DNA from: a virus
Taxonomy: Duplodnaviria; Heunggongvirae; Uroviricota; Caudoviricetes
DNA: 17,018 nucleotides
Virus record (IMG/VR): IMGVR_UViG_2606217117_000010
Strand: one strand, 5' to 3'
Shown here piece by piece: positions 312-17,018 of the stretch. Each line of letters begins with the position of its first letter. Within the stretch, counting starts at the first letter, position 1. The notes beneath the pieces were generated by a model, which did not search any database, had not been told where the DNA came from, and saw only the letters and a list, made by a program, of their open reading frames with translations. The position numbers were made by a program, and so were the translations under genes.

Positions 312-474
312 CTTTGTGGTAATAGGCCAGTCAACCAGCAGGATGCGTGTAAGCGAATTTGCGGAGCTATTAGAGCTTATACAGGCATTCGGTACAGAGC
401 GTGGCGTTAAGTGGTCAGACGAAGCGCGACTGGCTCTCGAATGGAAAGCGCGATGGGGAGATCGGGCTGCATGA
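312..474 (+). pseudogene. ninB: ninB (NinB/Orf-family recombination protein) 3' fragment, 5' part removed by the IS insertion
   Basis: Frame starting at 313 reads [53 protein letters not shown] then stop at 472-474. This matches the C-terminus of lambda NinB as I recall it. The reading frame begins abruptly at the IS boundary (311/312) with no start codon. Confidence 0.75.
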
Positions 475-998: not shown

Positions 999-1171
999 GA
1001 CGACAGCGACGAAGCATCACCGACATAATCTGCGAAAACTGCAAATACCTTCCAACGAAATGCTCCAGAAATAAACGCAAGCTAATCCCAAAAGAATCTG
1101 ACGTAAAAACCTTCAATTACACAGCCCACCTGTGGGATATCCGGTGGCTAAGATATCGTGCGAGGAAATGA
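995..1171 (+). CDS. ninE: NinE protein
   Basis: 58 aa [58 protein letters not shown] matches lambda/DLP12 NinE as I recall it. RBS AGGAGG at 984-989. The ORF-track start at 905 is an upstream extension overlapping the methyltransferase. Confidence 0.75.
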
Positions 1172-1173
1172 CA

Positions 1174-1515
1174 ATGGATTATTCACAGTTAAGTGATTTT
1201 GAAATTAACAGAATGGTAGGAGACATAATTTTTAAAGGCCTTTGGGCAAGTAAACCGGAAACATCAGGGAATAACACCAACAAATGGTATTACGGAAATG
1301 CTGATACAACTTTTGAGCCATTAAATCATTTGCCTGACTACTGCAATGATCCGAGCGCTTCATGGCCGATTATTGAGAAATACAGGATTTCTATCTTAGA
1401 CCAGTTAACTGAATGGTGTGTGGATGCAAAAGGCGTAAGCCCAATATTTGATACCAGACCTCTCCGCGCCGCCATGATTGTCTTTCTCCTGATGCAGGAG
1501 GCCAATAATGCTTAG
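1174..1515 (+). CDS. nin-region hypothetical protein (about 113 aa); possible NinX/DUF-type phage protein
   Basis: Uninterrupted ORF in the expected nin-region slot between ninE and the ninF-like ORF. GAGGA RBS at 1162-1166 and ATG at 1174, with an alternative ATG at 1168. The stop overlaps the next start. No motif recognised. Confidence 0.55.
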
Positions 1516-1702
1516 CCCATCTCAATCCCTTCAATACCTGAAAGAAAGCATAGAGCGGGCTTCAATGTGCACAGAGTGGATTCTATCTAGGTTTAGCGCA
1601 TACAGAAGATTGCCGGTAAAGGGCATGCCAAGCAAGTCGATGCTGCATATGCAAAAGAATGCGCGCTGGAAGGTATGGCGAGAACACAGGTTATGTGGCT
1701 AA
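1508..1702 (+). CDS. ninF: NinF-like small protein (N-terminus NinF-like, remainder divergent)
   Basis: The N-terminal [18 protein letters not shown] resembles lambda NinF ([18 protein letters not shown]...), but the remainder does not show the cysteine-rich NinF pattern I remember. Position immediately upstream of rusA. Confidence 0.4.
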
Positions 1703-1721
1703 AAGAGGGGGTTATTAAGGC

Positions 1722-2084
1722 GTGAATACCTACAGCATCACATTACCCTGGCCTCCGAGCAATAATCGCTATTACCGCCATAATCGCGGGCGCACGCACG
1801 TCAGCGCAGAGGGGCAGGCATACCGCGATAACGTCGCCCGAATCATTAAAAACGCAATGCTGGATATCGGCCTGGCTATGCCTGTGAAAATCCGCATTGA
1901 GTGCCACATGCCGGATCGCCGTCGCCGTGACCTGGATAATCTGCAAAAAGCCGCTTTTGACGCACTCACTAAAGCAGGTTTCTGGCTGGATGATGCTCAG
2001 GTCGTTGATTACCGCGTTGTGAAGATGCCTGTTACCAAAGGTGGGAGGCTGGAACTGACCATCACCGAAATGGGGAATGAATGA
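1722..2084 (+). CDS. rusA: crossover junction endodeoxyribonuclease RusA (Holliday junction resolvase)
   Basis: 120 aa [47 protein letters not shown]...[31 protein letters not shown] matches E. coli DLP12 RusA as I recall it. GTG start with upstream GAGGGGG RBS. Confidence 0.9.
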
Positions 2085-2221
2085 TGTTTGAGTTTAATAT
2101 GGCAGAACTTCTTCGCCACCGCTGGGGGCGTCTGCGCTTATATCGTTTCCCCGGTTCTGTTTTGACCGATTACCGAATACTGAAGAATTACGCCAAAACC
2201 CTGACAGGAACAGGAGTATGA
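2081..2221 (+). CDS. ylcG: YlcG-like small phage protein (46 aa)
   Basis: Below the ORF-track threshold. ATG at 2081 overlaps the rusA stop (ATGA). Translation [46 protein letters not shown] matches DLP12 YlcG as I recall it and occupies the same rusA-ylcG-Q position. Confidence 0.5.
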
Positions 2222-2306
2222 AGTCAGAGATAACAATCAACTAATACTGTTTTGTTGATTTTTGCTTGTAATTGGCGTTCTGGTCTGATTTTTGTGGAGT
2301 AAGTTG

Positions 2307-2690
2307 ATGCGTGATATTCAGATGGTTCTTGAGCGTTGGGGTGCGTGGGCGGCTAATAATCATGAAGATGTGACCTGGTCGTCCATTGCCGCCGGTTTTA
2401 AGGGATTAATTCCTTCAAAAGTAAAATCTCGCCCGCAATGTTGTGACGATGACGCGATGATCATTTGCGGGTGCATGGCCCGTCTGAAAAAGAACAACAG
2501 CGATTTACACGATTTATTAGTAGATTATTATGTATGTGGTATGACATTCATGTCACTGGCAAGTAAGCATTGCTGCTCGGATGGTTATATCGGGAAAAGG
2601 TTACAGAAGGCTGAGGGCATAATTGAAGGGATGTTAATGGCATTAGATATCCGGTTAGATATGGATATCGTTGCTAATAATTCTAATTGA
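2307..2690 (+). CDS. quuD: late-gene antiterminator Q (phage 82 / DLP12 QuuD type)
   Basis: 127 aa [62 protein letters not shown]... is cysteine-rich (putative Zn site) and matches 82-type Q/QuuD as I recall it. GGAG RBS at 2296-2299. The ORF-track TTG at 2292 is an upstream extension. Confidence 0.85.
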
Positions 2691-2827
2691 TATGCAATTG
2701 TTTACTAAAAGTTATTAAAAATGGGGCGTGGAAACGCCCCCAAAATAAAGGGTAATATATAACAGAAGGTTTATATAGTAAGAAGCAAGGTAGTGCTTCT
2801 AAAGGAAGTGGCTTGAGGGCTCCACTT
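2691..2827 (+). promoter_or_regulatory. possible Q-proximal late promoter / qut region (location uncertain; alternative site at 4160-4205)
   Basis: Inference from lambdoid architecture, where PR' and qut lie directly downstream of Q and upstream of a terminator. An intrinsic terminator lies at 2828-2868, but I could not identify a convincing -35/-10 pair here. Confidence 0.25.
2711..2740 (-). terminator. rho-independent terminator of the porin gene (minus strand)
   Basis: Hairpin GGGGCG-TGGAAA-CGCCCC at 2723-2740. On the minus strand it is followed by ATTTTTAATAAC (reverse complement of 2711-2722). Confidence 0.6.
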
Positions 2828-2878
2828 ATATGTTGCGGAGGCAAAGCCTCCCGCAACATATCTTTTTCGTAAGTCAGA
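2741..2878 (-). ncRNA. ipeX: porin 3'-UTR with strong internal hairpin; candidate IpeX-like regulatory RNA
   Basis: Untranslated stretch between the porin stop (2879) and its terminator, containing the 14-bp-stem hairpin at 2828-2861. An sRNA (IpeX) has been described in the equivalent nmpC 3' region of DLP12 and phage PA-2, as I recall. Sequence identity to IpeX was not verified. Confidence 0.3.
2828..2868 (+). terminator. rho-independent terminator on + strand downstream of Q (tR'-like, or terminator of early rightward transcription)
   Basis: Stem ATATGTTGCGGAGG (2828-2841), loop CAAAG, stem CCTCCCGCAACATAT (2847-2861) with a 1-nt bulge, followed by CTTTTTCG. Confidence 0.6.
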
Positions 2879-3961
2879 TTAGAACTGATAAACCAGACCT
2901 ACAGCGACGATGTCGTCGGTATCAATACCAGCTGTTTTGGTAAACTTACTATCGTCAATTAAGTTGATTTTGTAATCAACAAAAGTAGACATGTTTTTAT
3001 TAAAGTAGTAAGTAGCACCGACATCGACATACTTGACTAAGTCTCGGTCACCATGAACACCAAGGTCTTTACCTTTTGACTGAAGGTAAGCAACAGATGG
3101 GCGCAGACCGAAGTCAAACTGATATTGTGCTACTGCTTCAAAGTTTTGTGCTTTGTTTGCAATATGGTTATTACCAAAAACGGTCATATTCTGAGTTTCA
3201 GAATATGTGGTAGCCAGATAGATATTGTTCGCATCATATTTCAGGCCTGCAGCCCATACTTCCGCATTTTTGCCGGAGGCATTGAATTTGCTCTTACCAT
3301 AGGCGACCTGACCGTCAGTGCGATCTGATTTAGCATAGGTTGCACCCACGCCGAATCCTTCATACTCATAAGTAGTGGAGAAACCGAAACCATCACCATT
3401 GGCTTCAGTTACGTCAGTGCGGTCATTTTTACCCTGATACTGAGCAGCAAAGTTCAGGCCATCGACCAGACCAAAGAAGTCGTTGTTACGATAAGTTGCA
3501 ACACCAGTAGTGCGACCAGTCATGAACACATCTGTTTGGGTCCAGGTATCACCACCGAATTCTGGCAGAACGTCAGTCCACGCACCGATGTCGTATGCTA
3601 CACCGTAGTTACGGCCGTAATCGATGGAGCCGTAATCACCAAATTTCAGGCCTGCAAATGCAAGACGGGTTTTGTCTTTGGAAGAACCTTGAGATTCAGC
3701 ACGGTTGCCTTTGAATTCATATTCCCACTGACCGAAACCAGTCAGTTGATCGTTGATTTGGGTTTCACCTTTGAAGCCAAGACGGGCATAAGTAGTATCA
3801 CCATCATCTGCATCATTAGAGGAGAAGTAGTGCTTGGCATTAACTTTCCCGTATAGATCCAGCTTGTTACTGTCTTTATTATAAATTTCAGCTGCCTGAG
3901 CAGACATCGCCATCAGTACTGATGCAGCTACAGCAGAAATTGCCACTGTTAATTTTTTCAT
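2879..3961 (-). CDS. nmpC: outer membrane porin, OmpC/PhoE general bacterial porin family (prophage NmpC / Lc type)
   Basis: 360 aa from ATG at 3961-3959. Signal peptide [23 protein letters not shown] followed by [16 protein letters not shown], and C-terminal ...VAVGLVYQF ending in Phe: hallmark porin features. Located between Q and the holin as nmpC is in DLP12. The ORF-track start at 4021 is an upstream extension. Confidence 0.9.
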
Positions 3962-4159
3962 TGTACGCCCTTTTTTTGAACTATTATTAAAAAATGATGT
4001 CACTGCGCGATAAATATTCATCTAATCAATGTGATTATTTCAAGATGTAAGTTTTAGTTTCTCATTTAATTTGTGAAGTAGATCTCTATTTTTATCTGAA
4101 CCTTTTCTATCTAATCCTATTCATGGCTCTTGTCTGAACAAAAATAAATCTATTAGCTA

Positions 4160-4205
4160 ATTTATATTAATGGCACTTATTTATAAGTGCTCTATAATTC
4201 TTTAG
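4160..4205 (+). promoter_or_regulatory. candidate sigma70 promoter (possible late promoter PR' driving a short terminated leader RNA)
   Basis: -35-like ATGGCA (4170-4175), 17-bp spacer, perfect -10 TATAAT (4193-4198). It lies about 190 nt upstream of the intrinsic terminator at 4388-4420, analogous to lambda PR'-tR'. The region is AT-rich, so a chance match is possible. Confidence 0.3.
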
Positions 4206-4387
4206 CTTAATTTAAACAAACTAAAAATAACATCGGAAATTATTAACTGATTATTTGTTGAAGTTTTCTTATGTATTTGTGGTGGTGTTTTGAACACTCG
4301 GTGGCATTCTCACAAATATCATTTAGTAGTTTACGTACGTAAAAAATTGGTTATGCTGTTAAGAGTGGTTACTTCGTCACACAGCTT

Positions 4388-4420
4388 AAACCCGCCGTCG
4401 AGCGGGTTTTTCCATTTTTT
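4388..4420 (+). terminator. rho-independent terminator on + strand, 130 bp upstream of the holin gene (tR'-like candidate)
   Basis: Stem AAACCCGC (4388-4395), loop CGTCGA, stem GCGGGTTT (4402-4409), followed by TTCCATTTTTT. Confidence 0.55.
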
Positions 4421-4549
4421 GAGTCTCGATATTAGCTGATAACCCAATACCTGAGTTATTCACTGACTCCGAATCTGTTACGTTTCTGCCTTTATTGCGA
4501 TACGTAATATCCCCTTAATTTACACCCGCTTTGTCTGCGAGGTGGGGTT

Positions 4550-4765
4550 ATGAAATCCATGGATAAGTTAACAACGGGTGTCGCCTATGGCACCTCAGCA
4601 GGTAGTGCCGGTTACTGGTTTTTACCGCTGCTCGATAAAGTCACGCCCTCACAGTGGGCAGCAATAGGTGTGCTGGGTAGCCTGGTATTTGGCCTGCTGA
4701 CGTACCTGACAAACCTTTATTTCAAGATTAAAGAAGATAAGCGCAAGGCTGCGAGAGGTGAATAA
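4550..4765 (+). CDS. essD: class II holin / pinholin (phage 21 S21 type) with dual-start motif
   Basis: 71 aa [71 protein letters not shown] has two TMDs and a basic C-terminus. Met1-Lys-Ser-Met4 is the antiholin/holin dual start. Matches S21 as I recall it. Confidence 0.9.
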
Positions 4766-5262
4766 TGCCTCCATCATTACGAAAAGCCGTTGCTGCTGCT
4801 ATTGGTGGCGGAGCAATTGCTATAGCATCAGTGTTAATCACTGGCCCAAGTGGTAACGATGGTCTGGAAGGTGTCAGCTACATACCATACAAAGATATTG
4901 TTGGTGTATGGACTGTATGTCACGGGCATACAGGAAAAGACATCATGCTCGGTAAAACGTATACCAAAGCAGAATGCAAAGCCCTCCTGAATAAAGACCT
5001 TGCCACGGTCGCCAGACAAATTAACCCGTACATCAAAGTCGATATACCGGAAACAATGCGCGGCGCTCTTTACTCATTCGTTTACAACGTGGGTGCTGGC
5101 AATTTCAGAACATCGACGCTTCTTCGCAAAATAAACCAGGGCGATATCAAAGGCGCATGTGATCAGCTACGTCGCTGGACATATGCTGGCGGTAAGCAAT
5201 GGAAAGGTCTCATGACTCGTCGTGAGATTGAGCGTGAAATCTGTTTGTGGGGTCAGCAATGA
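4765..5262 (+). CDS. rrrD: SAR endolysin (T4-lysozyme-like, GH24; phage 21 R21 type)
   Basis: N-terminal signal-anchor-release domain [20 protein letters not shown], followed by a catalytic E...D...T triad region ([24 protein letters not shown]). GAGAGG RBS. Start overlaps the holin stop by 1 nt. Confidence 0.9.
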
Positions 5263-5723
5263 ACAGAGTAACCGCGATTATCTCCGCTCTGGTTATCTGC
5301 ATCATCGTCTGCCTGTCATGGGCTGTTAATCATTACCGTGATAACGCCATTACCTACAAAGCCCAGCGCGACAAAAATGCCAGAGAACTGAAGCTGGCGA
5401 ACGCGGCAATTACTGACATGCAGATGCGTCAGCGTGATGTTGCTGCGCTCGATGCAAAATACACGAAGGAGTTAGCTGATGCGAAAGCTGAAAATGATGC
5501 TCTGCGTGATGATGTTGCCGCTGGTCGTCGTCGGTTGCACATCAAAGCAGTCTGTCAGTCAGTGCGTGAAGCCACCACCGCCTCCGGCGTGGATAATGCA
5601 GCCTCCCCCCGACTGGCAGACACCGCTGAACGGGATTATTTCACCCTCCGGGAACGACTGGTAATGATGCAGGCCCAACTTGAAGGTGCTCAGCAATACA
5701 TAACCGAGCAGTGTTTAAAGTAA
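5259..5723 (+). CDS. rzpD: i-spanin Rz
   Basis: [61 protein letters not shown]... has an N-terminal TMD and coiled coil, and is near-identical to lambda Rz as I recall it. ATG 5259 overlaps the endolysin stop (ATGA). Confidence 0.85.
5479..5664 (+). CDS. rzoD: o-spanin Rz1 (outer-membrane lipoprotein), embedded in the +1 frame of Rz
   Basis: [24 protein letters not shown]... carries a lipobox (VVGC), followed by the proline-rich [15 protein letters not shown]. Entirely nested inside Rz. Confidence 0.85.
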
Positions 5724-5860
5724 AATCTTAACTACAATATGATTCATTTTGATGATTGTTTCATAAGGAACAGTGAAGTAAGATCTAAGAGGAGTTAAAT
5801 TTTATACAGTATAATCATAATATTGCAGCAAGGTGGTTATAATTGAAAGAATATTTAGAT

Positions 5861-7318
5861 ATGAATACATCTCATGTAAGAGTTGTTACTCATATGTGTG
5901 GGTTCCTGGTTTGGCTCTATAGTCTTTCAATGTTGCCACCAATGGTTGTAGCATTGTTTTATAAAGAAAAAAGCCTGTTCGTTTTCTTTATAACTTTCGT
6001 TATATTTTTTTGCATTGGTGGCGGAGCGTGGTATACAACTAAGAAATCTGGCATTCAATTACGTACCCGTGATGGGTTTATTATAATTGTAATGTTTTGG
6101 ATTTTGTTTTCTGTTATTAGTGCATTCCCTTTATGGATTGACTCAGAACTTAATTTAACGTTCATTGATGCTCTGTTTGAAGGGGTTTCTGGAATAACAA
6201 CAACAGGAGCAACTGTAATTGATGATGTTAGTTCATTACCTCGGGCATATTTGTACTATCGGTCACAGTTAAATTTTATAGGTGGTTTAGGAGTTATTGT
6301 TCTGGCGGTTGCTGTATTGCCATTATTGGGTATTGGTGGTGCAAAGCTTTATCAGTCAGAAATGCCGGGGCCATTTAAGGATGACAAACTCACTCCCCGC
6401 CTGGCCGATACGTCACGGACACTGTGGATAACTTATTCTTTATTAGGTATTGCTTGTATTGTCTGTTATAGACTTGCAGGAATGTCTTTGTTTGATGCTA
6501 TTTGTCACGGGATTTCCACAGTTTCGCTTGGTGGTTTCTCAACTCATAGCGAGAGTATCGGATATTTTAATAACTATTTGGTTGAGCTGGTGGCTGGTTC
6601 TTTTTCCCTGCTATCGGCTTTCAACTTCACTCTTTGGTATATTGTTATTAGCAGAAAAACGATAAAACCTTTAATCAGAGATATTGAACTTCGTTTCTTT
6701 CTGTTAATAGCCTTAGGGATGATCATTGTTACCTCTTTCCAGGTCTGGCATATAGGTATGTATGACTTGCATGGAAGTTTTATTCATTCGTTTTTTCTTG
6801 CCAGCTCCATGCTCACTGATAATGGTTTAGCTACGCAGGATTATGCAAACTGGCCCACGCACACGATAGTGTTTTTGCTGTTGTCAAGTTTCTTTGGGGG
6901 ATGTATCGGTTCAACCTGTGGTGGAATTAAGTCACTTCGATTTCTTATACTTTTCAAACAAAGCAAACACGAGATAAATCAACTTTCTCATCCCAGAGCG
7001 TTGTTAAGTGTAAATGTAGGAGGGAAGATAGTTACAGATCGTGTAATGAGGTCTGTATGGAGTTTCTTTTTTCTTTATACTCTCTTCACGGTGTTTTTTA
7101 TACTGGTGTTAAATGGTATGGGATATGATTTTCTTACATCATTTGCAACAGTGGCTGCATGTATTAATAATATGGGATTAGGTTTTGGGGCTACTGCATC
7201 GTCATTCGGAGTGCTTAATGACATTGCAAAATATTTAATGTGCATAGCTATGATTCTTGGTCGCCTTGAAATTTATCCTGTTATTATATTGTTTTCAGGT
7301 TTTTTTTGGCGCTCCTAA
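5861..7318 (+). CDS. trkG: Trk-system potassium uptake protein TrkG (TrkH/KtrB superfamily)
   Basis: 485 aa polytopic membrane protein with repeated selectivity-filter-like glycine motifs (GITTTGATV, GIGGAK, SLGGFS, GSTCGGIK). Matches the Rac-prophage TrkG of E. coli as I recall it. AT-rich gene downstream of Rz/Rz1, as in Rac. The ORF-track TTG at 5843 is an upstream extension. Confidence 0.9.
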   Translation: MNTSHVRVVTHMCGFLVWLYSLSMLPPMVVALFYKEKSLFVFFITFVIFFCIGGGAWYTTKKSGIQLRTRDGFIIIVMFWILFSVISAFPLWIDSELNLTFIDALFEGVSGITTTGATVIDDVSSLPRAYLYYRSQLNFIGGLGVIVLAVAVLPLLGIGGAKLYQSEMPGPFKDDKLTPRLADTSRTLWITYSLLGIACIVCYRLAGMSLFDAICHGISTVSLGGFSTHSESIGYFNNYLVELVAGSFSLLSAFNFTLWYIVISRKTIKPLIRDIELRFFLLIALGMIIVTSFQVWHIGMYDLHGSFIHSFFLASSMLTDNGLATQDYANWPTHTIVFLLLSSFFGGCIGSTCGGIKSLRFLILFKQSKHEINQLSHPRALLSVNVGGKIVTDRVMRSVWSFFFLYTLFTVFFILVLNGMGYDFLTSFATVAACINNMGLGFGATASSFGVLNDIAKYLMCIAMILGRLEIYPVIILFSGFFWRS

Positions 7319-7404
7319 TATATGGCTGATTTATAATTGTGAGTTTAATATTATGTTGACTCACTCATTGATCCAATACCTAACTTTACCAGCAACACCT
7401 CCGC

Positions 7405-7439
7405 CCCCAGTAGCACTGGCTGCTGGGGTGCGTTTTATT
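7405..7439 (+). terminator. rho-independent terminator downstream of trkG
   Basis: Stem CCCCAGTAGC (7405-7414), loop ACTG, stem GCTGCTGGGG (7419-7428, one G-U pair), followed by TGCGTTTTATT. Confidence 0.55.
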
Positions 7440-7455
7440 CATAAAGCAAGGCTGT

Positions 7456-8250
7456 ATGAGCGAGAAATTAAAGATAGTCTATCGCCCATTACAAGAATTG
7501 TCACCGTATGCGCACAATGCCAGGACGCACAGTACTGAGCAGGTGGCACAACTGGTAGAAAGTATTAAGCAATTCGGCTGGACTAATCCGGTGCTGATTG
7601 ACGAAAAGGGCAAAATTATTGCGGGTCACGGTCGTGTTATGGCGGCTGAAATGCTCAAAATGGATTCTGTTCCGGTCATTGTTCTGTCTGGCCTGACGGA
7701 TGAGCAGAAAAAGGCGTACCGCCTGGCAGATAATCGCCTGCCGATGAATGCTGGCTGGGATGAAGATCTGTTGCGGATGGAGCTGTCGGACCTAATCAAT
7801 GCTGATTTTGATGTCTCCCTGACAGGCTTCATCCCGACAGAAATTGATGAACTGTTGACGGATGTTTTGCCCGGTACAGGAAATGAGGAGGAGCCGTATA
7901 CGACGAAAATTGATACGCCTGTTTATGAGCCGTCGGGCGGTAAACCGGATATCAGTGAACTGTACGACGATACGAAAACTCAGGAGCTGATCAGCCGGAT
8001 ACGTTCGGCGTCCCTTGATCCTGATATTGAGAAATTCCTCCTGTGTGCGGCAGAACGTCACACAGTGTTTAATTTCAGCAGAATTGCGGACTATTACGCT
8101 CATGCCCCCGCTGAAATTCAGTGCCTTTTCGAGGAGTCGGCGCTGGTGATCATTGATTATCAGCAGGCTATTGAAAATGGATTTGTCCGAATGACGCAGC
8201 GCATGGTGGAGATCATGCATGGCGGGGAGGAGGAGGAGGAATATGCGTGA
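7456..8250 (+). CDS. ParB/sulfiredoxin-like nuclease-domain protein (ParB N-terminal domain plus uncharacterised C-terminal domain with poly-Glu tail)
   Basis: N-terminal IVYRPLQELSPYAHNARTH...NPVLIDEKGKIIAGHGRVMAAEM resembles the ParB/Srx fold, with a G-x-G-R box in place of the ParB GERRxRA patch. The C-terminus GGEEEEEYA is encoded by GGAGGAGGAGGAGGAA, which doubles as the RBS of the next gene. A Rac-prophage ynaK-like position is possible but unverified. Confidence 0.75.
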   Translation: MSEKLKIVYRPLQELSPYAHNARTHSTEQVAQLVESIKQFGWTNPVLIDEKGKIIAGHGRVMAAEMLKMDSVPVIVLSGLTDEQKKAYRLADNRLPMNAGWDEDLLRMELSDLINADFDVSLTGFIPTEIDELLTDVLPGTGNEEEPYTTKIDTPVYEPSGGKPDISELYDDTKTQELISRIRSASLDPDIEKFLLCAAERHTVFNFSRIADYYAHAPAEIQCLFEESALVIIDYQQAIENGFVRMTQRMVEIMHGGEEEEEYA

Positions 8251-9175
8251 TGATTTTTGCGCCTTTATTCTGACTCACGGGCGACCGGACAAAGTTCTGA
8301 CTTACCGGACGTTGCGTCGTGCTGGCTATACCGGGAAAATTTTTATCGTTGTTGATGATGAAGATAAGACACGGCATCAGTACATGGCTGAATTTGGTGA
8401 ACAGGTGCTGGTATTTTCCAAAGCCGATATTGCCAGTCGTTTTGACGAAGCCGATAATTTTGGTGATCGCCGCTCAATTTTTTACGCCCGTAATGCCTGT
8501 TTCGACCTGGCAAAACTGGTCGGGTGTAAATACTTCATTCAGCTCGATGATGATTATCACGAGTTCCAGTTTCGGGTGGATCGCAACTATGACCAGGCCT
8601 ATTTCCCGATAAGGAAACTGGATGCGATCCTTTCTGAAATGCTGGCGTATTACGAATCAATACCCGCGCTTTCCATCGCTATGTCGCAGGGCGGGGATTT
8701 TCTTGGTGACAATGGCGGCCATGCTTCGTGGGTGAAACGCAAGGCAATGAACAGCTTTATCTGTTCGGTTGATCGACCGTTCTCATTCATGGGGCGCATT
8801 AACGAGGATGTGAATACGTACACGAATCTCGGTCGCTGTGGTGAATTGTTTATGACGATCGGTGCTGTCCAGTTAGGGCAGAAACAGACTCAGAAAAACA
8901 GCGGCGGAATGACCGAGCTGTATCTGGATTCCGGAACCTACGTTAAAAGTTTTTACTCCGTCATGTATTCGCCGTCGTGCGTAAAAATCTCACTGATGGG
9001 TGCCAGCCATAAACGCATTCACCATCAGGTCACCTGGAACAACGCTGCAGTAAAAATCCTTCACGAAAAATACAGGAAGAAGACACCCTGCATATCAATG
9101 GGGGTGACAAATGATTCCGTATTCGAAAGTCGAGTCTCTGGCAGCGTGCCGGATGACTGCACAACAAATCGCTGA
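8243..9175 (+). CDS. uncharacterised protein with N-terminal GT-A (family-2-like) glycosyltransferase fold signature
   Basis: The coding region is well supported: long ORF, strong AGGAGG RBS, 8-nt overlap with the upstream stop. Alternative ATG at 8219 gives MAGRRRRN-. The function is a motif-level guess: AFILTHGRPD...IFIVVDDEDK...ARNACFDLAKLVGCKYFIQLDDDYHEF resembles the GT2 pattern (beta-strand with DD, then ARN...G.Y...LDxDD/DxD). Confidence 0.6.
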   Translation: MRDDFCAFILTHGRPDKVLTYRTLRRAGYTGKIFIVVDDEDKTRHQYMAEFGEQVLVFSKADIASRFDEADNFGDRRSIFYARNACFDLAKLVGCKYFIQLDDDYHEFQFRVDRNYDQAYFPIRKLDAILSEMLAYYESIPALSIAMSQGGDFLGDNGGHASWVKRKAMNSFICSVDRPFSFMGRINEDVNTYTNLGRCGELFMTIGAVQLGQKQTQKNSGGMTELYLDSGTYVKSFYSVMYSPSCVKISLMGASHKRIHHQVTWNNAAVKILHEKYRKKTPCISMGVTNDSVFESRVSGSVPDDCTTNR

Positions 9176-9362
9176 CGTTCTGGATGTTGATCTGAACCGA
9201 CTGAAAGAAAATCGGGAAGCAATGACAGATTTTTATGCGGCCATCCGTAAGGGCAGAGCGAAAGGTGAAGCCGAGTTACGAGCGGCATTGTTTAAGCTTG
9301 CCAGAAAAGGGGATGCCTTTGCTCTGCGCGAACTACTCAGGGTGGATAAAAATCAGGACTAA
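9111..9362 (+). CDS. small hypothetical protein, possibly DNA-binding (packaging-associated?)
   Basis: 83 aa ORF with GGGGTG RBS, ending 3 nt before the terminase small subunit start. Contains the HTH-like segment MTAQQIADVLDVDLNRL. It overlaps the 3' end of the upstream gene by 65 nt, and the alternative start at 9153 still overlaps by 23 nt. Confidence 0.45.
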   Translation: MIPYSKVESLAACRMTAQQIADVLDVDLNRLKENREAMTDFYAAIRKGRAKGEAELRAALFKLARKGDAFALRELLRVDKNQD

Positions 9363-9365
9363 CTG

Positions 9366-10460
9366 ATGAGCAGACCGGACTGGGGGGCGTTGCAGCAGGA
9401 GTATATTGCTGAATACACCCGCTCCGGTATATCTCCGGTGGCATGGTGTGAAGCAAGGGGACTGAACTACGCAACAGCCCGTCGTTACATCAAAAAAACT
9501 CCGAAAAATGCGCAGAAAGAAATGCGCAAAACTGCGCAAAAAAGTGCGCGAAAAAAAACTGCGCAGACTGCGCAAAGGCAGAACGGAAAATCTCAGAAAA
9601 AAAAGGCTGTATCCGATGCACTCCTGATTGAGGGGGACACGGAAGAAATTTCGTTCTGCCCCGATGAATTCGGTATTTCTGACCAGCAGGCAAAATTCGC
9701 CATGTTGGTTGCTCAGGGGAAAAAGCCGACAGAGGCATACCGACTGGCTGGTTATGAGGGGCAAGGTGCGACAGCTAACAGCAACGCCAGCCGTATGCTT
9801 AGAAATGCCAGGGTTTATCGTGCTATCAGCTACTTCCGCAATCAGTACCAGAAACGCTATACCGCAGACCTGGATTTACTGGTGAGCCAGTTGATGGCCA
9901 TTGTCCAGGCCGACCCCAATCAGTTGGCACAATTTCGCCGTGTTAACTGCCGTTATTGCTGGGGCGAGAATCATCTCTACCAGTGGCGTGATATTGCAGA
10001 ATTCGATAAGGCTGCGGCACAGGCCTCCAGAGATGGTAAACCCGAGCCGGAATATGGAGGCCTCGGCTTTGTTGATAACGCCATACCCAATCCTGATTGC
10101 CCGAAGTGCTGCGGTGAGGGAACAGGACAGCTTTATATGGCTGATACCACACTGCTTGATGGGGATGCGCGGCAATTATATGCAGGGTCAAAGCTCGGAA
10201 AATACGGTGTTGAGATCCTGCTGGAGGATAAGGCTGCCGCCCGGCGTGAATTGTTGCGTTTGCTTTCTGCTGGCGGGGCATTATGTGCAGATAAGCGGCT
10301 ACAGGAACTGGAAATTGAACGGCGCAGAATAGAGAACCAGAAGCTGCGCAAAGAGATCGAAACGGTGGAGGATAATGAACATCCCCAGCCTGTGGCGATC
10401 AATATTAATGTGGTTGATGCCAGATTAAGGAGTGATGAAGATGATCTCTCCGACGCTTAA
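9366..10460 (+). CDS. terminase small subunit (Terminase_2-like) with N-terminal HTH, lysine-rich linker and a CxxC...CxxC zinc-ribbon insertion
   Basis: Segment FGISDQQAKFAMLVAQGKKPTEAYRLAGYEGQGATANSNASRMLRNARV matches the terminase small-subunit pattern (LT.KQ..F...Y...NAT.A...AGYS...A...ASRLL.N). Lies immediately upstream of the large subunit. Cysteine pairs NCRYCWGE and DCPKCCGE. Confidence 0.7.
   Translation: MSRPDWGALQQEYIAEYTRSGISPVAWCEARGLNYATARRYIKKTPKNAQKEMRKTAQKSARKKTAQTAQRQNGKSQKKKAVSDALLIEGDTEEISFCPDEFGISDQQAKFAMLVAQGKKPTEAYRLAGYEGQGATANSNASRMLRNARVYRAISYFRNQYQKRYTADLDLLVSQLMAIVQADPNQLAQFRRVNCRYCWGENHLYQWRDIAEFDKAAAQASRDGKPEPEYGGLGFVDNAIPNPDCPKCCGEGTGQLYMADTTLLDGDARQLYAGSKLGKYGVEILLEDKAAARRELLRLLSAGGALCADKRLQELEIERRRIENQKLRKEIETVEDNEHPQPVAININVVDARLRSDEDDLSDA
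9490..9620 (+). repeat. degenerate tandem repeats (about 12 nt, TGCGCA-A-rich) with A7-A8 homopolymer runs, inside the terminase small subunit gene
   Basis: AATGCGCAGAAAG / AAATGCGCAAAA / CTGCGCAAAAAA / GTGCGCGAAAAAAAA / CTGCGCAGACTGCGCAAAGG, encoding KNAQKEMRKTAQKSARKKTAQTAQRQ. Confidence 0.5.
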
Positions 10461-11742
10461 TGTGCCTCAGGCGCGATTTCTTTCAATGCCCCATAAATTT
10501 AAAGCCTATATTGCTGGTTTTGGCTCGGGCAAAACATGGGTTGGGTGTGGCGGCATATGCAAGGGGATTTGGGAGCATCCAGGTATAAATCAGGGATATT
10601 TTGCGCCAACGTATCCCCAAATTCGCGATATTTTTTACCCTACAGTGGAAGAAGTTGCTGCTGACTGGGGATTGAACGTAAAAATTAATGAGGGAAATAA
10701 AGAGGTTCACTTTTATTACGGACGCCAGTATCGGGGAACCACTATCTGCAGATCGATGGAGAAGCCACAAACGATCGTCGGTTTCAAAATTGGTAATGCG
10801 CTGGTGGATGAACTGGACATTTTGCCGAAGGAAAAAGCCAGAACGGCGTGGCGCAAGATAATTGCGCGTATGCGTTATAAGATTGATGGACTTCGCAACG
10901 GTATTGACGTTACAACCACGCCGGAAGGATTCAAATTTGTCTACGAGCAGTTTGTTAAAGCCGTGCGTGAAAAAACAGAGCTGGCCTCACTGTATGGTCT
11001 GGTGCAGGCATCTACTTTCGATAATGAAAAGAACCTGCCAGCAGATTACATTCCTTCACTTCTTGAATCATACCCTCCAGAGCTGATTAAAGCCTATCTT
11101 CTAGGACGGTTTACTAACCTGACAAGTGGTACTGTTTACCATCAGTTTGACCGGAAACTGAATAATTGCGAAGAAGTGGAGCAGCCAGGGGAGCCGATTT
11201 ATATTGGGATGGATTTTAACGTTGGAAAGATGGCGGGAATCGTCCATGTGCTGCGTTTGGGGCTTCCATGTGCGGTAACTGAAATCATCAATGCCTACGA
11301 TACGCCGGATATGATCCGCCTCATTAAAGAACGCTTCTGGCTGTATGACGGGCATGATTACCGGAAAGTGAGGGAGATTTATATTTATCCAGATGCTTCC
11401 GGAGATTCCAGAAAATCAAGTAACGCAAGTACGACGGATATAGCCCAGCTTAAGCAGGCAGGTTTTAACGTTGTGGTGAACAGCTCGACCCCGCCAGTAA
11501 AAGATCGCGTTAACTCAATGAATGCAATGTTCTGCAATGCCAATGGTGAGCGTCGCTATAAAGTTAATGTGAAGCGTTGTCCGGTATATGCCGAATCTCT
11601 GGAGCAACAGGTCTGGGATGATAAGGGGGAGCCTGATAAAAAATCTGGCAATGATCACCCGAATGATGCCGGAGGTTATTTCATCGTTAAGCAATTCCCT
11701 ATTGTCAAACCGACCGGAAGAGTCACATCACTTCGGATTTAA
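10441..11742 (+). CDS. terminase large subunit (ATPase plus nuclease)
   Basis: Walker A AGFGSGKT near the N-terminus, and C-terminal nuclease acidic motifs (YPDASGDS, GNDHPNDAGG). AAGGAG RBS at 10426-10431 favours ATG 10441; the ORF-track start at 10432 (GTG) is also possible. Overlaps the end of the small-subunit gene. Confidence 0.9.
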   Translation: MISPTLNVPQARFLSMPHKFKAYIAGFGSGKTWVGCGGICKGIWEHPGINQGYFAPTYPQIRDIFYPTVEEVAADWGLNVKINEGNKEVHFYYGRQYRGTTICRSMEKPQTIVGFKIGNALVDELDILPKEKARTAWRKIIARMRYKIDGLRNGIDVTTTPEGFKFVYEQFVKAVREKTELASLYGLVQASTFDNEKNLPADYIPSLLESYPPELIKAYLLGRFTNLTSGTVYHQFDRKLNNCEEVEQPGEPIYIGMDFNVGKMAGIVHVLRLGLPCAVTEIINAYDTPDMIRLIKERFWLYDGHDYRKVREIYIYPDASGDSRKSSNASTTDIAQLKQAGFNVVVNSSTPPVKDRVNSMNAMFCNANGERRYKVNVKRCPVYAESLEQQVWDDKGEPDKKSGNDHPNDAGGYFIVKQFPIVKPTGRVTSLRI

Positions 11743-11744
11743 TT

Positions 11745-13151
11745 ATGGCTGATATATCAACACCCAACCTCGACTATAACGATATGCTGGAGGCGTGGGA
11801 TATTAACGACGCATTGATGGGCGGTACGCTTGAAATGCGCAGGCAGGGGGAAAATTATCTCCCCAAATGGCCTAATGAAGATGAAGACGCTTATAAAAAA
11901 CGCCTGTCTGTGGCTACGTTACTTCCTGTGTATGAAGAAAGCATCAAACAAAATATTGGGCGCATATTTGCAGAGCCGACAGTATTGAGTGAGGAAACGC
12001 CGGAAAAAATCAGGGAATATGCAGAAAATATCGACATGGAGGGGAGCCGACTGGATGTGTGGGCGCAGCAATTTTTCAGTCTCGCATTTCAGTATGGTGT
12101 GGCACATGCGCTGGTGGACTATCCACGAACGGATATGAACGAGATTCGGACAAAAGCCGATGAAAACGCGGCCGGTGGTCGCCCGTACGTTACGATGCTG
12201 AATCCACGCCAGGTTATTGGATGGAAATCGAAAGTTGAAAAAGGGAAAGTTGTTCTCACTGATTTGCGTATAAAAGAGGTCATCATTATTGATGGTGATG
12301 ATTTCGGGCAGAAGAAGGTGGAGCAGATCCGCCATATTATGCCCCGTCGAGTTGAAATTTATCGACGTAGCGAAGGCACTAATGGCGAATCTGTCTGGAC
12401 GCTTCATGAGTCATGGAATACCAGCCGTGATGATATTCCTCTGGTAACACTGTACACGAAGAAAACAGGATTTATGCGTGGTACACCGCCATTGCTTAAT
12501 CTTGGCTTGCTGAATATCAAGCACTGGCAAAGCCAGAGCGAGCAGGACAATATTCTTCATGTTGCCCGCGTTCCATTGCTGGTGGCCTACGGGCTGGACA
12601 GGAATGAAGAACTGACGGTTGGTGCATCCACCGCTACGATTTTTGAGGACAGAACAAAAAATGGCCTCGAATATGTTGAACATAGTGGCGCAGCGATAGA
12701 ATCTGGCGAAACATCACTTGAGAAGCTGGAAAATCAGATGCGTCATGCCGGCGCTAAACTTCTGCGTGCTGAAAATACATCCACCAAATCTGTTGATCAG
12801 ACTAATGAAGAGCGAATGCAGGAAAACTCGCCGCTTTATACAATGGCGAACTCCCTCGAAGATGCCCTCGATAATATTCTCCAGATAATGGCGGAATGGA
12901 TCGGAGAGAGTTGCGGTGGCAATGTGGATGTGCGCACTGAACTGGATGTATCTGCCCAGGTGTTTGACTCATCCTCCGCGCTGGCTGTTCAGTCATTGCG
13001 TCAGGGCGGTGATATACGTCAGATTGATGCGGTTCGGGTGTTGCAGGCGTTGAAATTTATCGATCAGGATTCCCGTCCAGAGGAAGTGATCGATGAATTA
13101 AAAAATCAGAGTGTAATGCTGATGGAAATCAATGATGCAAACCGTGAATGA
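11745..13151 (+). CDS. portal protein (putative)
   Basis: 468 aa ORF starting 3 nt after the large-terminase stop and followed by a Mu-F-like head morphogenesis gene: the canonical portal position and size. No motif confirmation. Confidence 0.7.
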   Translation: MADISTPNLDYNDMLEAWDINDALMGGTLEMRRQGENYLPKWPNEDEDAYKKRLSVATLLPVYEESIKQNIGRIFAEPTVLSEETPEKIREYAENIDMEGSRLDVWAQQFFSLAFQYGVAHALVDYPRTDMNEIRTKADENAAGGRPYVTMLNPRQVIGWKSKVEKGKVVLTDLRIKEVIIIDGDDFGQKKVEQIRHIMPRRVEIYRRSEGTNGESVWTLHESWNTSRDDIPLVTLYTKKTGFMRGTPPLLNLGLLNIKHWQSQSEQDNILHVARVPLLVAYGLDRNEELTVGASTATIFEDRTKNGLEYVEHSGAAIESGETSLEKLENQMRHAGAKLLRAENTSTKSVDQTNEERMQENSPLYTMANSLEDALDNILQIMAEWIGESCGGNVDVRTELDVSAQVFDSSSALAVQSLRQGGDIRQIDAVRVLQALKFIDQDSRPEEVIDELKNQSVMLMEINDANRE

Positions 13152-14247
13152 ACGGCTGCGTGATGAATCAATTGCTCATGCAGTCTGGATATCCCGCTAT
13201 AGCACTGGCGTGGCTGCCAGAATGGTGAAAATACTGAATGACAGCGATGCGGAACTTACTGCTCGCCTGCTGATAGCACTGGACAGCCTCGATCCAGGTA
13301 GTTTTACCGTTAAGCGCCTGGAGTCACTTCTGGCGAGCGTCAGAGAGGTTAACCGCACTGCTATTAACAGCATGTTTACCAGTCTCTCCGGAGAGCTGAA
13401 CGAGCTGGCAATTTATGAGGCTGGTTATCAGTTAAGTCTGTTTGATTCTATGCTACCTGATTTTGTTGCTGATGTTCACCCTCTGGTTGGTATCTCTCCT
13501 GATGCACTTTATGCCGCTGCAATGGCGCGACCATTCCAGGGACGACTGCTCAGTGAGTGGGCCTCAGATCTTGAGGCGGATCGGCTCAGACGCATAACAA
13601 ATACAGTGCGTCAGGGTTTTTTGCTGGGGGATACCAATGAGCAGATCGCAAGAAAAATTCGGGGACATGTCAGTAAGGGATTTCAGGATGGTGCATTGCA
13701 GATGAGCCGGGCTAATGCGGCCAGCATTGCAAAAACAGCGGTTGGACATCTTGCTGCTACTGCCCGTGAGAGTTTTGCCAGCGCGAATAATGATTTGATT
13801 AAGGGTAAGCAATGGTTATCAACGCTTGATAATCGTACTACGCCACAATGTCGAATCAGGGATCGCCTCAAATATACGCTGAATAATAAACCTGTAGGTC
13901 ACAGCGTGCCTTATTTGCAGGGGCCGGGAAAAATTCATTTCTGCTGCCGCTCAACGGAAACGTTCATTCTGAAATCAGCGAAGGAACTGGGTATTGATGT
14001 TCGCGATATTTCCCCGGCTGAGCGGGCCAGCATGGATGGCGTGATGGCCGGAGATACAACCTACAGGGAATGGTTTTTGCGTCAGCCTTACACCAGACAA
14101 AAACAGATTGTGGGGGAAAGCCGAGCAAAGCTGATTCGGGATGGTGGTATGTCGCCAGATGAATTTTACACCGATAAAGGCGAATGGCTGACGCTGAAGC
14201 AGCTCCGTGAGCGTGATGCACAGGTATTCAGAAAAGCAGGGATTTAA
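13132..14247 (+). CDS. phage head morphogenesis protein, SPP1 gp7 / Mu F family (minor head protein)
   Basis: Contains the family-typical segment GKQWLSTLDNRTTPQCRIRDRLKY (D-x-R-T-x-x-C). Overlaps the portal gene end by 20 nt. Confidence 0.8.
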   Translation: MMQTVNERLRDESIAHAVWISRYSTGVAARMVKILNDSDAELTARLLIALDSLDPGSFTVKRLESLLASVREVNRTAINSMFTSLSGELNELAIYEAGYQLSLFDSMLPDFVADVHPLVGISPDALYAAAMARPFQGRLLSEWASDLEADRLRRITNTVRQGFLLGDTNEQIARKIRGHVSKGFQDGALQMSRANAASIAKTAVGHLAATARESFASANNDLIKGKQWLSTLDNRTTPQCRIRDRLKYTLNNKPVGHSVPYLQGPGKIHFCCRSTETFILKSAKELGIDVRDISPAERASMDGVMAGDTTYREWFLRQPYTRQKQIVGESRAKLIRDGGMSPDEFYTDKGEWLTLKQLRERDAQVFRKAGI

Positions 14248-14266
14248 ATAAATCATTTATTACAAC

Positions 14267-14294
14267 AGGCTACCTTCGGGTGGCCTTTTTTATT
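14267..14294 (+). terminator. rho-independent terminator with UUCG tetraloop between the head morphogenesis and scaffold genes
   Basis: AGGCTACC-TTCG-GGTGGCCT (8-bp stem including one G-U pair) followed by TTTTTATT, beginning 20 nt after the stop at 14247. Confidence 0.6.
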
Positions 14295-14351
14295 GCTGCG
14301 ATCCGGATGGTGAGCAGCGTAACTGTCGGAAGACTTAAACCAGGTACTAAT

Positions 14352-15116
14352 ATGAAACTGAAAACGGTCGAGATTAACGGAAAACAATACGCAGAAATTG
14401 ATACTGCTGGCCTGCCAGTTTATGTGCACGACGATGGTAAAGAAATTGGCTTCGATGCACCGCTGGCGACAAAAAAAATTACAGAGCTTAATGGCGAGGC
14501 AAAAAATCATCGCCTGGCTAAAGAAGCTGCAGAGGAAAAACTGGCTAAGTTTGCCGCTATCGAAGACCCGAAGAAGGCGATCGAGGCACTGGAAATGCTG
14601 TCAAAAATCGACCAGAAAAAGCTGCTCGATGCGGGACAGGTTGACCAGGTTAAGGCAGAAATTACGAAAAATTTTCAGCAGCAATTAGATGAAGAAAAGC
14701 AACGCTCTCAGATGCTGGAGAAGCAGCTTTACGATTCTATGATTGGCGGTAGTTTTGCGGGTTCAAAATATATTGCCGATAAAATTGCGATCCCGGCAGA
14801 TTTATTACAAGCCCGCTTCGGGCAGGCATTCAAAGTGGAAGAAGGGAGGATCGTTGCTTATGACGCTTCCGGCAACAAAATTTATTCCCGCGCGAAGCCT
14901 GGCGAACTGGCGCAGTTTGATGAGGCGCTGGAGTTCCTTGTCGAAAATTACCCTCAGAAAGACTACATCCTGAAAGCCAGTGGCAACAATGGCGGCGGCT
15001 CCCGTCCGACACAGCATGATATTGGTCAGAAAACGATGAAACGCTCTGCTTTTGATGCACTGGATGTTGCAGGTAAGCAAAACGCATTGAAAGACGGTAT
15101 CACAATCGTTGATTAA
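14352..15116 (+). CDS. putative scaffolding protein
   Basis: 254 aa, highly charged and alanine/lysine/glutamate-rich with predicted coiled-coil character. Positioned between the head morphogenesis and capsid genes. The ORF-track start at 14280 lies inside the terminator hairpin, so ATG 14352 is preferred. Confidence 0.55.
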   Translation: MKLKTVEINGKQYAEIDTAGLPVYVHDDGKEIGFDAPLATKKITELNGEAKNHRLAKEAAEEKLAKFAAIEDPKKAIEALEMLSKIDQKKLLDAGQVDQVKAEITKNFQQQLDEEKQRSQMLEKQLYDSMIGGSFAGSKYIADKIAIPADLLQARFGQAFKVEEGRIVAYDASGNKIYSRAKPGELAQFDEALEFLVENYPQKDYILKASGNNGGGSRPTQHDIGQKTMKRSAFDALDVAGKQNALKDGITIVD

Positions 15117-15214
15117 CACATTTGTCAGCTTCCGGATGGGAGCTGGTGTCAGGGCTGGATAGCTCATTACTCCATCTATTCACAATTACGCAAATTTTTA
15201 AGGAATATTTAATT

Positions 15215-16149
15215 ATGGCTGGAAATACCCTGACCGGGTTGATCCCGACTATTTATACCGCCCTGGATGTTGTATCCCGTGAGCAGGTAGGTTTTATCCC
15301 TGCGGTAGCAAAAAACGCAAAAGCTGACGCCGCAGCAAAAGATCAGACGGTAACCGCGCCAGTTGCGCCTGAGGCGAAAACCGAAGATATCGTACCGGGG
15401 CCGTCAGCTCCGAATACCGGTGATCAAAATATTGGCACTGTTGATGTAAAAATTACTAAATCCAAAATGGCACCGGTTAAATGGAATGGTGAAGAACAAC
15501 TGGCTCTTGGCCCTTCAGGGACTTACAACACCATTCTGGCTGATCAGTTCAAGCAGGCTTTTCGCGCCCTTGCAAACGAGGTTGAGGCTGATCTTGGTGC
15601 GTTGTATTTCGGTGCTTCCCGCGCCGTGGGAACCGCAGGGACAACGCCGTTTGGTGTTAAAGATGATCTTTCTGATGCTGCTCTGGCTCGTCAGGTTCTG
15701 GAGGATAACGGCGCACCGACAACCGATCTGCAGATGGTGCTTGGCTCCACTGCCATTGCTAATTTGCGCGGAAAACAGTCTGTATTGTTTAAAGTGAATG
15801 AATCCGGCACTGAACAGCTACTGCGTGAGGGCGTGTTGGGGCGTCTGGAGGGATTCAATATTCACAGTTCGGCAGGTGTGAAACGAGCGCCAAAGGTTGC
15901 TGCAACTGGTTATCTCGTGAATGGAGAGAAAAAAGAAGGCGATGTTCTTATTTCCATTGATACTGGTTCGGGGAGTATTTCTGCAGGTCAGATTGTTACG
16001 TTCGCTGGTGATCCGAATCAGTATGTTGTGGCAGCAGCGACCAGCAATCTGATTACTCTTGCAGCGCCCGGACTGCGTCAGGATCTGGCCGATGATACTG
16101 CCATCACAGTTGTTGGGGCCTTTACTGCAAATATGGCGTTTGATCGCAA
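15215..16149 (+). pseudogene. major capsid (coat) protein gene, 3' end interrupted by IS insertion
   Basis: ORF with AAGGA RBS and ATG 15215, directly after the scaffold gene. The reading frame runs into the IS terminus at 16150 and ends 13 codons later inside IS sequence (...MAFDRN|EPPRVSWRVFYL*). Capsid identity is by position and size only. Confidence 0.6.
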
Positions 16150-17018
16150 TGAACCGCCCCGGGTTTCCTGGAGAGTATTTTATCTGTGAACTCAGGCTGC
16201 CAGATCATCGTTTCCGATGGAAGCATAATAAGCTTTTTCTGCTTCTGCCGGAGGAGTATGGCCCAGCCTTTCCAGCAATCGTCGATTGTTATACCAGTCC
16301 ACCCACGTGAGTGTGGCCAGTTCCACTTCTGCACGGTTTTTCCAGCTCTTACGGTGTATTACCTCCGCTTTGTAAAGACCATTGATGCTCTCCGCCATCG
16401 CGTTGTCATACGAGTCGCCTGTACTTCCTGTTGATGCCAGTAATCCGGCTTCCTTAAGCCGCTGTGTGTAGGCCAGCGATACATACTGAGAACCTTTATC
16501 ACTGTGATGGACCGTGCCGGACGGTCGACGGGCCCATAACGCCTGCTCCAGTGCATCCAGCACGAATGTCGTCTCCATGGACGATGAGACCCGCCACCCC
16601 ACAATGTATCCGGCAAACACATCAATGATGAACGCCACATAGACGAAGCCCTGCCATGTGCTGACGTAAGTAAAATCAGCCACCCACAGCTGGTCAGGTC
16701 GTTCTGCCACGAACTGACGGTTTACGCGGTCGCCTGCGGCAACGGCTTTCCGGCTGATGGTCGTACGGACCTTTTTACCCCGGAGAACACCGGCAAGTCC
16801 CATAACCGCCATGAGACGTGCCACAGTGCATCTGGCCACTCTGATACCTTCCCGTAACAACTGACGCCAGACTTTACGCACACCGTATACCTTGTGATTT
16901 TCATCGTATACGCGCTGTATCTCTTTCTTCAGCCAGTCATCGCGCTGCGCACGGGCACTGCGTTTATCCGGATGATGTCGCTGTTGCTGACAGTGGTAAT
17001 ACGTTGACGGGGCAATAT
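16150..17018 (-). mobile_element. IS3-family insertion sequence (IS629/IS1203-like), partial: inverted repeat at the orfB end plus most of orfB; element continues past the window end
   Basis: Terminus TGAACCGCCCCGGGTTTCCTGGAGAG at 16150 is an inverted-repeat partner of the terminus at 281-311. A DDE transposase gene follows on the minus strand. Confidence 0.85.
16192..17018 (-). CDS. IS3-family transposase OrfB (DDE integrase-like catalytic domain), 5'-partial in window
   Basis: Translation ...RKVWRQLLREGIRVARCTVARLMAVMGLAGVLRGKK...WVADFTYVSTWQGFVYVAFIIDVFAGYIVGW...HHSDKGSQYVS...DSYDNAMAESINGLYKAEV... contains a DDE motif (D...D...E). The frame stays open to the window edge, consistent with an OrfAB frameshift fusion. 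Confidence 0.85.
   Translation of the reverse strand, partial: IAPSTYYHCQQQRHHPDKRSARAQRDDWLKKEIQRVYDENHKVYGVRKVWRQLLREGIRVARCTVARLMAVMGLAGVLRGKKVRTTISRKAVAAGDRVNRQFVAERPDQLWVADFTYVSTWQGFVYVAFIIDVFAGYIVGWRVSSSMETTFVLDALEQALWARRPSGTVHHSDKGSQYVSLAYTQRLKEAGLLASTGSTGDSYDNAMAESINGLYKAEVIHRKSWKNRAEVELATLTWVDWYNNRRLLERLGHTPPAEAEKAYYASIGNDDLAA

Follow-up and report, generated by a model that had tools for sequence, protein, structure and literature searches.

An IS629 copy truncating the capsid gene of a Rac-site prophage of Escherichia coli, and a probable deletion beside it

The truncated capsid gene and the genes around it

The window, that is, the whole stretch of 17,018 bp that was analysed, was the entire contig JNQN01000069.1 (GCA_000704145.1), and both of its ends lay within copies of the insertion sequence IS629. 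A packaging and head module on the plus strand led up to a capsid gene that was cut by the right-hand copy. Upstream of the cut, this module contained the terminase small subunit (9366-10460), the terminase large subunit (about 10441-11742), a DUF4055 portal protein (11745-13151), a Mu-F-like minor head protein (13132-14247), and a scaffold-like protein (14352-15116) with matches to DUF6651 and to PHROG 206 “head scaffolding”. The head-module genes from 9366 to 15116 were apparently intact, since their lengths equalled those in relatives whose capsid gene is whole. Further to the left were trkG (5843-7318) and a ParB_N gene (7456-8250).

The capsid ORF ran from an ATG at 15215, preceded by AAGGA, to a TGA at 16187-16189 and comprised 324 codons and the stop. 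Its native portion, the 5′ part of a P22-family, HK97-type capsid gene, occupied 15215-16149 on the plus strand (935 nt, codons 1-311 plus 2 nt). Residues 1-312 of the product were identical (312/312, 100%) to those of the intact 379-residue protein WP_000918487.1, a “P22 phage major capsid protein family protein” that many E. coli chromosomes encode in intact form. The DNA match to the intact alleles broke off exactly after position 16149. From 16150 the sequence (TGAACCGCCCCGGG... / TGAACCGCCCCGGGTTTCCTGGAGAG...) was that of the inverted-repeat end of a 1310-bp IS, and the ORF thus ran into the IS terminus at the very position named in the first-pass annotation. The junction split codon 312 between AA and T, with the asparagine retained. 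The IS-derived tail of the ORF (16150-16189, plus strand) supplied the third base of this codon, 12 further codons (EPPRVSWRVFYL), and the TGA; the stop had earlier been placed 13 codons into the IS, a count that is equal within convention. These same bases doubled as the terminal inverted repeat at the orfB-proximal end of the IS.

Database entries from E. coli 2-222-05_S3_C2 and _C3 list the truncated product as “phage coat protein” (KDX83157.1 and others); the product is best handled in annotation as a pseudogene fragment. The exact 324-residue product was found on at least 15 contigs from isolates and gut metagenomes (NCBI, ENA, and Logan assemblies), and because of this recurrence the junction between capsid and IS is taken to be real and inherited. 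An identical junction was present in OZ038772.1, a complete chromosome of 5.19 Mb. A mis-join of capsid and IS at a repeat, with an intact capsid gene in the cell, might be suspected because the contig end falls in a multicopy repeat. Such an artefact is extremely unlikely, since the junction sits in unique sequence that runs into the IS end, and the same junction recurs in the complete chromosome and in the independently assembled contigs.

Extent of the capsid loss

The intact capsid gene has 1140 nt and encodes 379 residues, so that the 935 nt retained in the window leave 67 residues (18%) missing at the C-terminus. Comparison with intact homologues, a check proposed together with the claim of a missing native C-terminus, bore that claim out, and neither outcome named as refuting it was encountered. 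In a search of 5.8 billion proteins, nearly all of the best 120 homologues listed had 377-379 residues and did not end near residue 312; the few of other lengths among them were all partial, fused, or rearranged copies from E. coli. Named full-length homologues among those listed came from E. coli, Citrobacter, Salmonella, Klebsiella, Serratia, Leclercia, and Phytobacter. In an alignment of 18 sequences the lost segment of 67 residues was mostly invariant, for example at R319-P324, G326-D328, R351-Q355, and R357-V366. The conservation of these missing residues suggests that the function of the capsid protein has been lost.

Profile comparisons pointed in the same direction. The truncated product covered positions 2-316 of the 385 positions of PHROG 283 “major head protein”, and the intact protein covered 2-383. 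Against Pfam PF11651 (P22_CoatProtein) the truncated product scored 33.6 bits and the intact protein 48 bits, with a gathering cut-off of 24, and the truncated product lacked a full-length match to the family profiles. Judged from its sequence, the capsid gene of the window, although truncated, is a member of the P22 coat family by descent, because the Pfam score passes the gathering cut-off in both the truncated and the intact alleles. The likeness to the P22 coat protein family (PF11651; PHROG 283, HK97-fold) consisted of these significant profile matches and of the gene order of portal, Mu-F, scaffold-like protein, and capsid. The intact protein differed from that family in its length, with 379 residues against a Pfam model of 423 positions, and it aligned well in the middle only. 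Neither allele matched any NCBIfam model, and searches of the PDB with the protein sequence and with a profile gave no meaningful match to a solved relative. An AlphaFold2 model of the intact protein, built from the 18-sequence alignment, in which the sequences were 82-87% identical to the first one, had a mean pLDDT of 31 and was unusable. Proteins named “YdaY” in the 90% cluster of the capsid protein were dismissed as a clustering artefact, being dissimilar to it (E = 0.74).

The IS629 element and the probable deletion beside it

The complete IS was obtained from the Rac-site locus of OZ038772.1 (extract L003), where it measured 1310 bp at 10936-12245. Its ends, TGAACCGCCCCGGG... and ...CCCGGGGCGGTTCA, agreed as inverted repeats at 31 of 40 positions, and it encoded a 108-residue HTH_Tnp_1 product (orfA) and a 295-residue rve product (orfB). 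Identical copies carry the annotations “programmed frameshift” and AL1L pseudoknot; the frameshift region lies outside the window. Many E. coli genomes contained copies with 100% identity to the element. Its identity was 99.6% over 795 bp to a copy annotated as “IS3-like element IS629 family”, a name that comes from PGAP, and 96.0% over 1310 bp to one with the annotation “IS1203 family”. IS1203 is an isoform of IS629 (PMC3271280). A length of about 1.3 kb with 5′-TG...CA-3′ inverted repeats, the orfA/orfB arrangement, and the identity to named copies together identified the element as IS629 of the IS3 family.

Both copies in the window were on the minus strand, in the same orientation, and each was cut by a contig end. 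The right copy (16150-17018) matched positions 1-869 of the IS at 100%, which settled the earlier claim that a second IS629-like copy cuts the capsid gene, and it contained the 3′ part of orfB (16192-17018, minus strand) encoding the rve transposase. The left copy (1-311) matched IS positions 1000-1310, the orfA-proximal part, also at 100%, with its inverted repeat at 271-311. A family of 29-nt direct repeats (D1) was taken as chance, its two further copies being only 69-76% identical.

Because the contig ends inside the IS, the far side of the right copy is invisible in the window, and it was read from OZ038772.1, which differed from window positions 5215-17018 by 1 mismatch in 11,804 bp. In this chromosome the IS was flanked by ...GATCGCAA on one side and GATGGATTTTTGC... 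on the other (...GCAA, IS, GATG...), and no target-site duplication was present. Simple insertions of IS3-family elements produce a short target-site duplication of 3-4 bp. The right flank was not the remainder of the capsid gene, which in intact alleles reads CGCAAC GCG TTT CTG at the cut and has the 3′ remainder CAACGCGTTTCTGCTGG..., but the last 665 nt of a side tail fibre gene.

The deletion was delimited against an uninterrupted, syntenic prophage, L013 of E. coli A1_136, with which the locus shares the right-hand neighbours sitDCBA-uspF-ompN-nifJ. Positions 6421-10935 of L003 corresponded to L013 1-4515 (99.6%) and positions 12246-14656 to L013 20001-22408 (99.3%), both on the plus strand, and the IS occupied the place of L013 4516-20000, that is, of 15,485 bp. 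The missing DNA contained, on the head side, the 3′ end of the capsid gene, a 58-aa ORF, and three small head-tail connector genes. These were followed by the tail terminator, tail tube, ydaY, and tape measure genes, by the genes of the tail-tip proteins M, L, K (a C40 peptidase), I, and J, and by lom. At the fibre end, an N-terminal tail-fibre fragment and the first 1333 nt of a fibre gene with a “head spike fiber domain” were missing. The marks of an adjacent deletion, an intact IS between collinear flanks from which the intervening DNA is gone, were thus all found in OZ038772.1, the one complete sister genome. The first-pass annotation had read the locus as an IS copy that truncates the capsid gene. 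The truncation stood, whereas insertion alone did not suffice, since about 15.5 kb was also absent in OZ038772.1 and the target-site duplication was lacking. Its view that the prophage is defective was strengthened, with the capsid gene truncated and, in OZ038772.1, the stretch from the capsid 3′ end to the tail fibre gone. The A1_136 reference itself carries a tape-measure pseudogene, and a defect may thus have existed already in the ancestor.

The intact IS, the lack of a target duplication, and the collinear flanks with the middle gone indicate that the IS629 copy very probably marks an IS-associated deletion within a lambdoid Rac-site prophage. Since the window contig ends inside the IS, we infer the deleted state in its own strain from the near-identity to OZ038772.1. 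The window's strain might instead carry a simple IS629 insertion, with the capsid 3′ end and the tail genes still lying beyond the IS and the deletion arising later in the OZ038772.1 lineage only. The far side of the IS is unseen in the window, and the source strain and OZ038772.1 differ by at least one IS event, since the window has an interrupted ninB and OZ038772.1 an intact one. This history is nevertheless improbable, given the single mismatch in 11.8 kb, the identical junction, and the outcome of the junction searches. The junction that it predicts, IS-CAA-capsid remainder, was not found in metagenome contigs, and neither was the other presumed ancestral junction, fibre-GAT-IS. The actual left and right IS junctions were not found in viral contigs, and neither occurred in 5,426 RefSeq complete E. 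coli genomes. Even with a simple insertion, the capsid gene would be broken.

Two routes to an IS-associated deletion were considered. In the first, a single IS629 would have inserted in one of the two genes, capsid or fibre, and a transposase-dependent, one-sided adjacent deletion would then have cleared the DNA between both points while the IS was retained. We favour this route, with limited confidence. In the second, two IS629 copies in the same orientation would have recombined homologously, which is a serious candidate though somewhat less probable. The missing target-site duplication fits either a secondary deletion or recombination and was not counted against the identity of the element as IS629. 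The end state is the same for both routes, and the junction searches turned up no genome retaining the presumed ancestral simple insertion from which the order of events could be read. IS3-family elements including IS629 are known to cause adjacent deletions that range from a few bases to over 40 kb, some of which preserve the IS, and in O157:H7 strains 62% of the IS629 copies lie in prophages (PMC8860574, PMC9943667, PMC3271280). Insertions and adjacent deletions in O157:H7 involve the same 1310-bp element (TGAAC... repeats, orfA/orfB) in lambdoid prophages, and the present locus resembles them in the inactivation of a gene and in a deletion beside a preserved IS (PMC3271280, PMC9943667, PMC8860574). 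The host differs, being here a non-O157 human isolate lineage (the 2-222-05_S3 series).

The result of either route would be a capsid fragment of 324 residues without 67 strongly conserved C-terminal residues. Without tail genes the element would be unable to form virions and would survive as a cryptic remnant with trkG and, downstream, sitABCD. This head module also occurs in GenBank “phage” records (vB_EcoS-...R..), which were rejected as proof that intact relatives form particles; the study behind them appears to concern phages “located in” the genomes of clinical isolates.

The loci of OZ038772.1 and A1_136 were of the Rac type, having the uspF-ompN-nifJ/ydbK neighbourhood together with trkG and ynaK-like genes; the prophage genes trkG, ynaK (ParB-like), and ydaY were named from annotation. 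The Rac cryptic prophage of K-12 shares the uspF-ompN-nifJ/ydbK site as well as trkG, ynaK, and ydaY, and it is likewise a deletion remnant that retains trkG. K-12 Rac stems from the same type of phage through a different deletion, in which packaging and head genes were lost and tail-fibre remnants were kept. Here, by contrast, the packaging genes and the head genes as far as the capsid gene were kept, the tail module was lost, and sitABCD lay at the right end. The locus is a clean case of IS629 fixing a lambdoid prophage as a remnant, with the cargo (trkG, sitABCD) kept and particle formation lost, and it illustrates that a far larger deletion can be masked where a contig ends in an IS. The reduction of a lambdoid prophage to a cryptic remnant by an IS629-associated deletion is ordinary, already known biology, and the importance of the case is limited to little beyond bookkeeping.

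The left part of the window and decay in other strains

The left IS629 copy abutted a 3′ remnant of ninB (312-474, plus strand) comprising the last 52-53 codons, and Pfam NinB is on record for the 52-residue product. A look-up of this remnant was not informative, its matches being unrelated phages in which the same fragment is merely called. An intact ninB of 146 residues occupied the same place in a lambda-like prophage of OZ038772.1 (L037 5564-6004), which lies at 3.53 Mb and has Bor, Nu1, and lambda-type head genes after the lysis genes. Window positions 312-5648, which contained the ninB remnant and genes for a Dam-like methylase, NinX, RusA, Q, a porin, holin, lysozyme, and Rz, showed 0 differences in 5,337 bp from this prophage. 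Positions 5058-17018 matched the Rac-site prophage of OZ038772.1 at 2.27 Mb. The two prophages of OZ038772.1 are 1.27 Mb apart, and their lysis cassettes are inverted relative to each other and 97.1% alike over 1.1 kb. Mismatch maps delimited an identical stretch of 591 bp common to both (5058-5648, plus strand), in the lysozyme/Rz part of the lysis cassette, and it was here that the window switched from the lambda-like to the Rac-site prophage. A comparison of the window with locus L025 gave zero lysis-region differences past 5057.

Hence the contig is a short-read chimera formed at the 591-bp repeat, or else a genuine inversion or recombination produced it, and the ninB disruption and the porin may sit in a different prophage from the truncated capsid gene. 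The two IS hits had been read as damage to one decaying prophage. The IS damage on both sides was confirmed; that it concerns a single element is doubtful, because positions 312-5648 correspond to a separate lambda-like prophage in OZ038772.1. Whether one prophage or two, both elements bear IS damage.

That one decaying prophage extends from one IS629 copy to the other, both included, with the order nin-Q-porin-lysis-trkG-capsid real in this strain, is plausible, although we lean against it. Two prophages could have given rise to it through recombination, or a 1.27-Mb inversion, at their lysis cassettes. The cassettes of OZ038772.1 are inverted and share 591 identical bp, so that one crossover yields exactly the order of the window. 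The order porin-lysis-trkG is contiguous in 34 complete E. coli genomes, among them MIN10 at the argU/intD site, and the same 17,018-bp contig was recorded from two samples. Against a single prophage, the closest complete genome has both parts 1.27 Mb apart in separate prophages, and the join falls within an exact repeat that exceeds short-read length. Moreover, most of the other assemblies with this capsid allele break within the repeat, as expected if it is unresolvable. The contig may thus join two prophages, and features at its opposite ends are not safely assigned to one element. Two lambdoid prophages with a near-identical inverted segment that are able to recombine have likewise been described for prophage-mediated large chromosomal rearrangements in O157:H7 (PMC8743559); in contrast to those cases, a real rearrangement and a short-read chimera are indistinguishable here.

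The segment at 312-16149 (about 15.8 kb) carries the porin, the lysis genes, trkG, ParB/TAGT, and the packaging and head genes between two identical, direct IS629 copies. It might accordingly be imagined as a hybrid unit from prophage-prophage recombination that could be moved or excised as an IS629 composite element and is not a passive remnant. This is very improbable. No second site with the unit was found, both IS copies are cut by the contig ends, and in OZ038772.1 the halves of the segment lie in different prophages.

Decay of this capsid gene is recurrent. The protein search revealed other independent breaks near residue 294 (P0007) and at residue 269 (P0052), a frameshift at residue 307 (P0018), and a fusion of capsid and tail fibre at residue 304 (P0019), as well as ParB-capsid (P0020) and TAGT-capsid (P0022) fusions. 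In other strains, an IS629-group copy was located between the scaffold and capsid genes (L002) or right after the 58-aa ORF (L044).

Two prophages and the left IS629 copy

When the window was compared with the closest complete chromosome, OZ038772.1, its two parts matched two different prophages. Positions 312-5648 matched 5842-11178 of the lambda-like prophage (L037), and positions 5058-17018 matched the Rac-site prophage (L003/L025). The two matched prophages were located 1.27 Mb apart in inverted orientation in that chromosome, and the two parts of the window are joined through 591 bp of the lysozyme/Rz region that form an exact repeat between these prophages. The contig is either an assembly chimera or the product of a real prophage-prophage inversion.

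At window 1-474, a 52-codon remnant of ninB directly adjoined the left IS629 copy, of which only one flank, the ninB side, lay within the window. Since ninB was intact in OZ038772.1 (146 aa), the left insertion is specific to the strain of the window. The lambda-like prophage of OZ038772.1 also carried an IS629 insertion, in the replication gene O (L037 75-3659), and this copy was in turn split by a group II intron encoding a 507-aa reverse transcriptase (RVT_1 and GIIM).

Erosion of the capsid gene and head module

The prophage family that carries the capsid gene of the window is repeatedly eroded by deletions. In other public genomes, the capsid gene showed several independent truncations and in-frame fusions (P0007, P0018, P0019, P0020, P0022, and P0052), the fusions being of the capsid-tail fibre, ParB-capsid, and TAGT-capsid types. 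The same head module in other E. coli strains contained further copies of the IS629/IS1203 group, 96-97% identical to the IS629 of the window: one was located between the scaffold-like and capsid genes (L002 4062-5371), and another was just 3' of a 58-aa ORF downstream of the capsid gene (L044 2988-4297). The 90%-identity cluster of the window capsid protein (P0001) also included 119-aa entries named "protein YdaY". These were rejected as capsid relatives because they had no similarity to the capsid, and their presence is probably a clustering artefact caused by a fused or bridging sequence.

The prophage of A1_136 (L013), used as the "uninterrupted" reference, may also be non-viable, because its tape-measure gene was annotated as a pseudogene with an internal stop (L013 8462-11695).

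Accessory genes of the Rac-site prophage

The interval between trkG and the terminase genes (window 7456-9175) contained, on the plus strand, a gene for a 264-aa protein with a ParB_N domain match, overlapped by a plus-strand gene matching PF20691 (TAGT), whose 310-aa product was called at about 8243-9175 within a longest ORF of 8219-9175. These two genes could form a putative DNA-modification pair, provided that PF20691 represents glycosyltransferases.

In the upstream part of the Rac-site prophage, a 754-aa NACHT/NCH1 protein, possibly an anti-phage NTPase, was encoded intact in UGFX01000002.1 (L024 306-2570), and its gene was broken into ORFs of 267 and 365 aa in OZ038772.1 (L025 306-2563). 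At the right end of the remnant in OZ038772.1, beyond the window, the iron/manganese transporter genes sitDCBA (L003 14672-18121), flanked by tail-fibre genes on one side and uspF on the other, were kept as cargo although the tail module had been lost.
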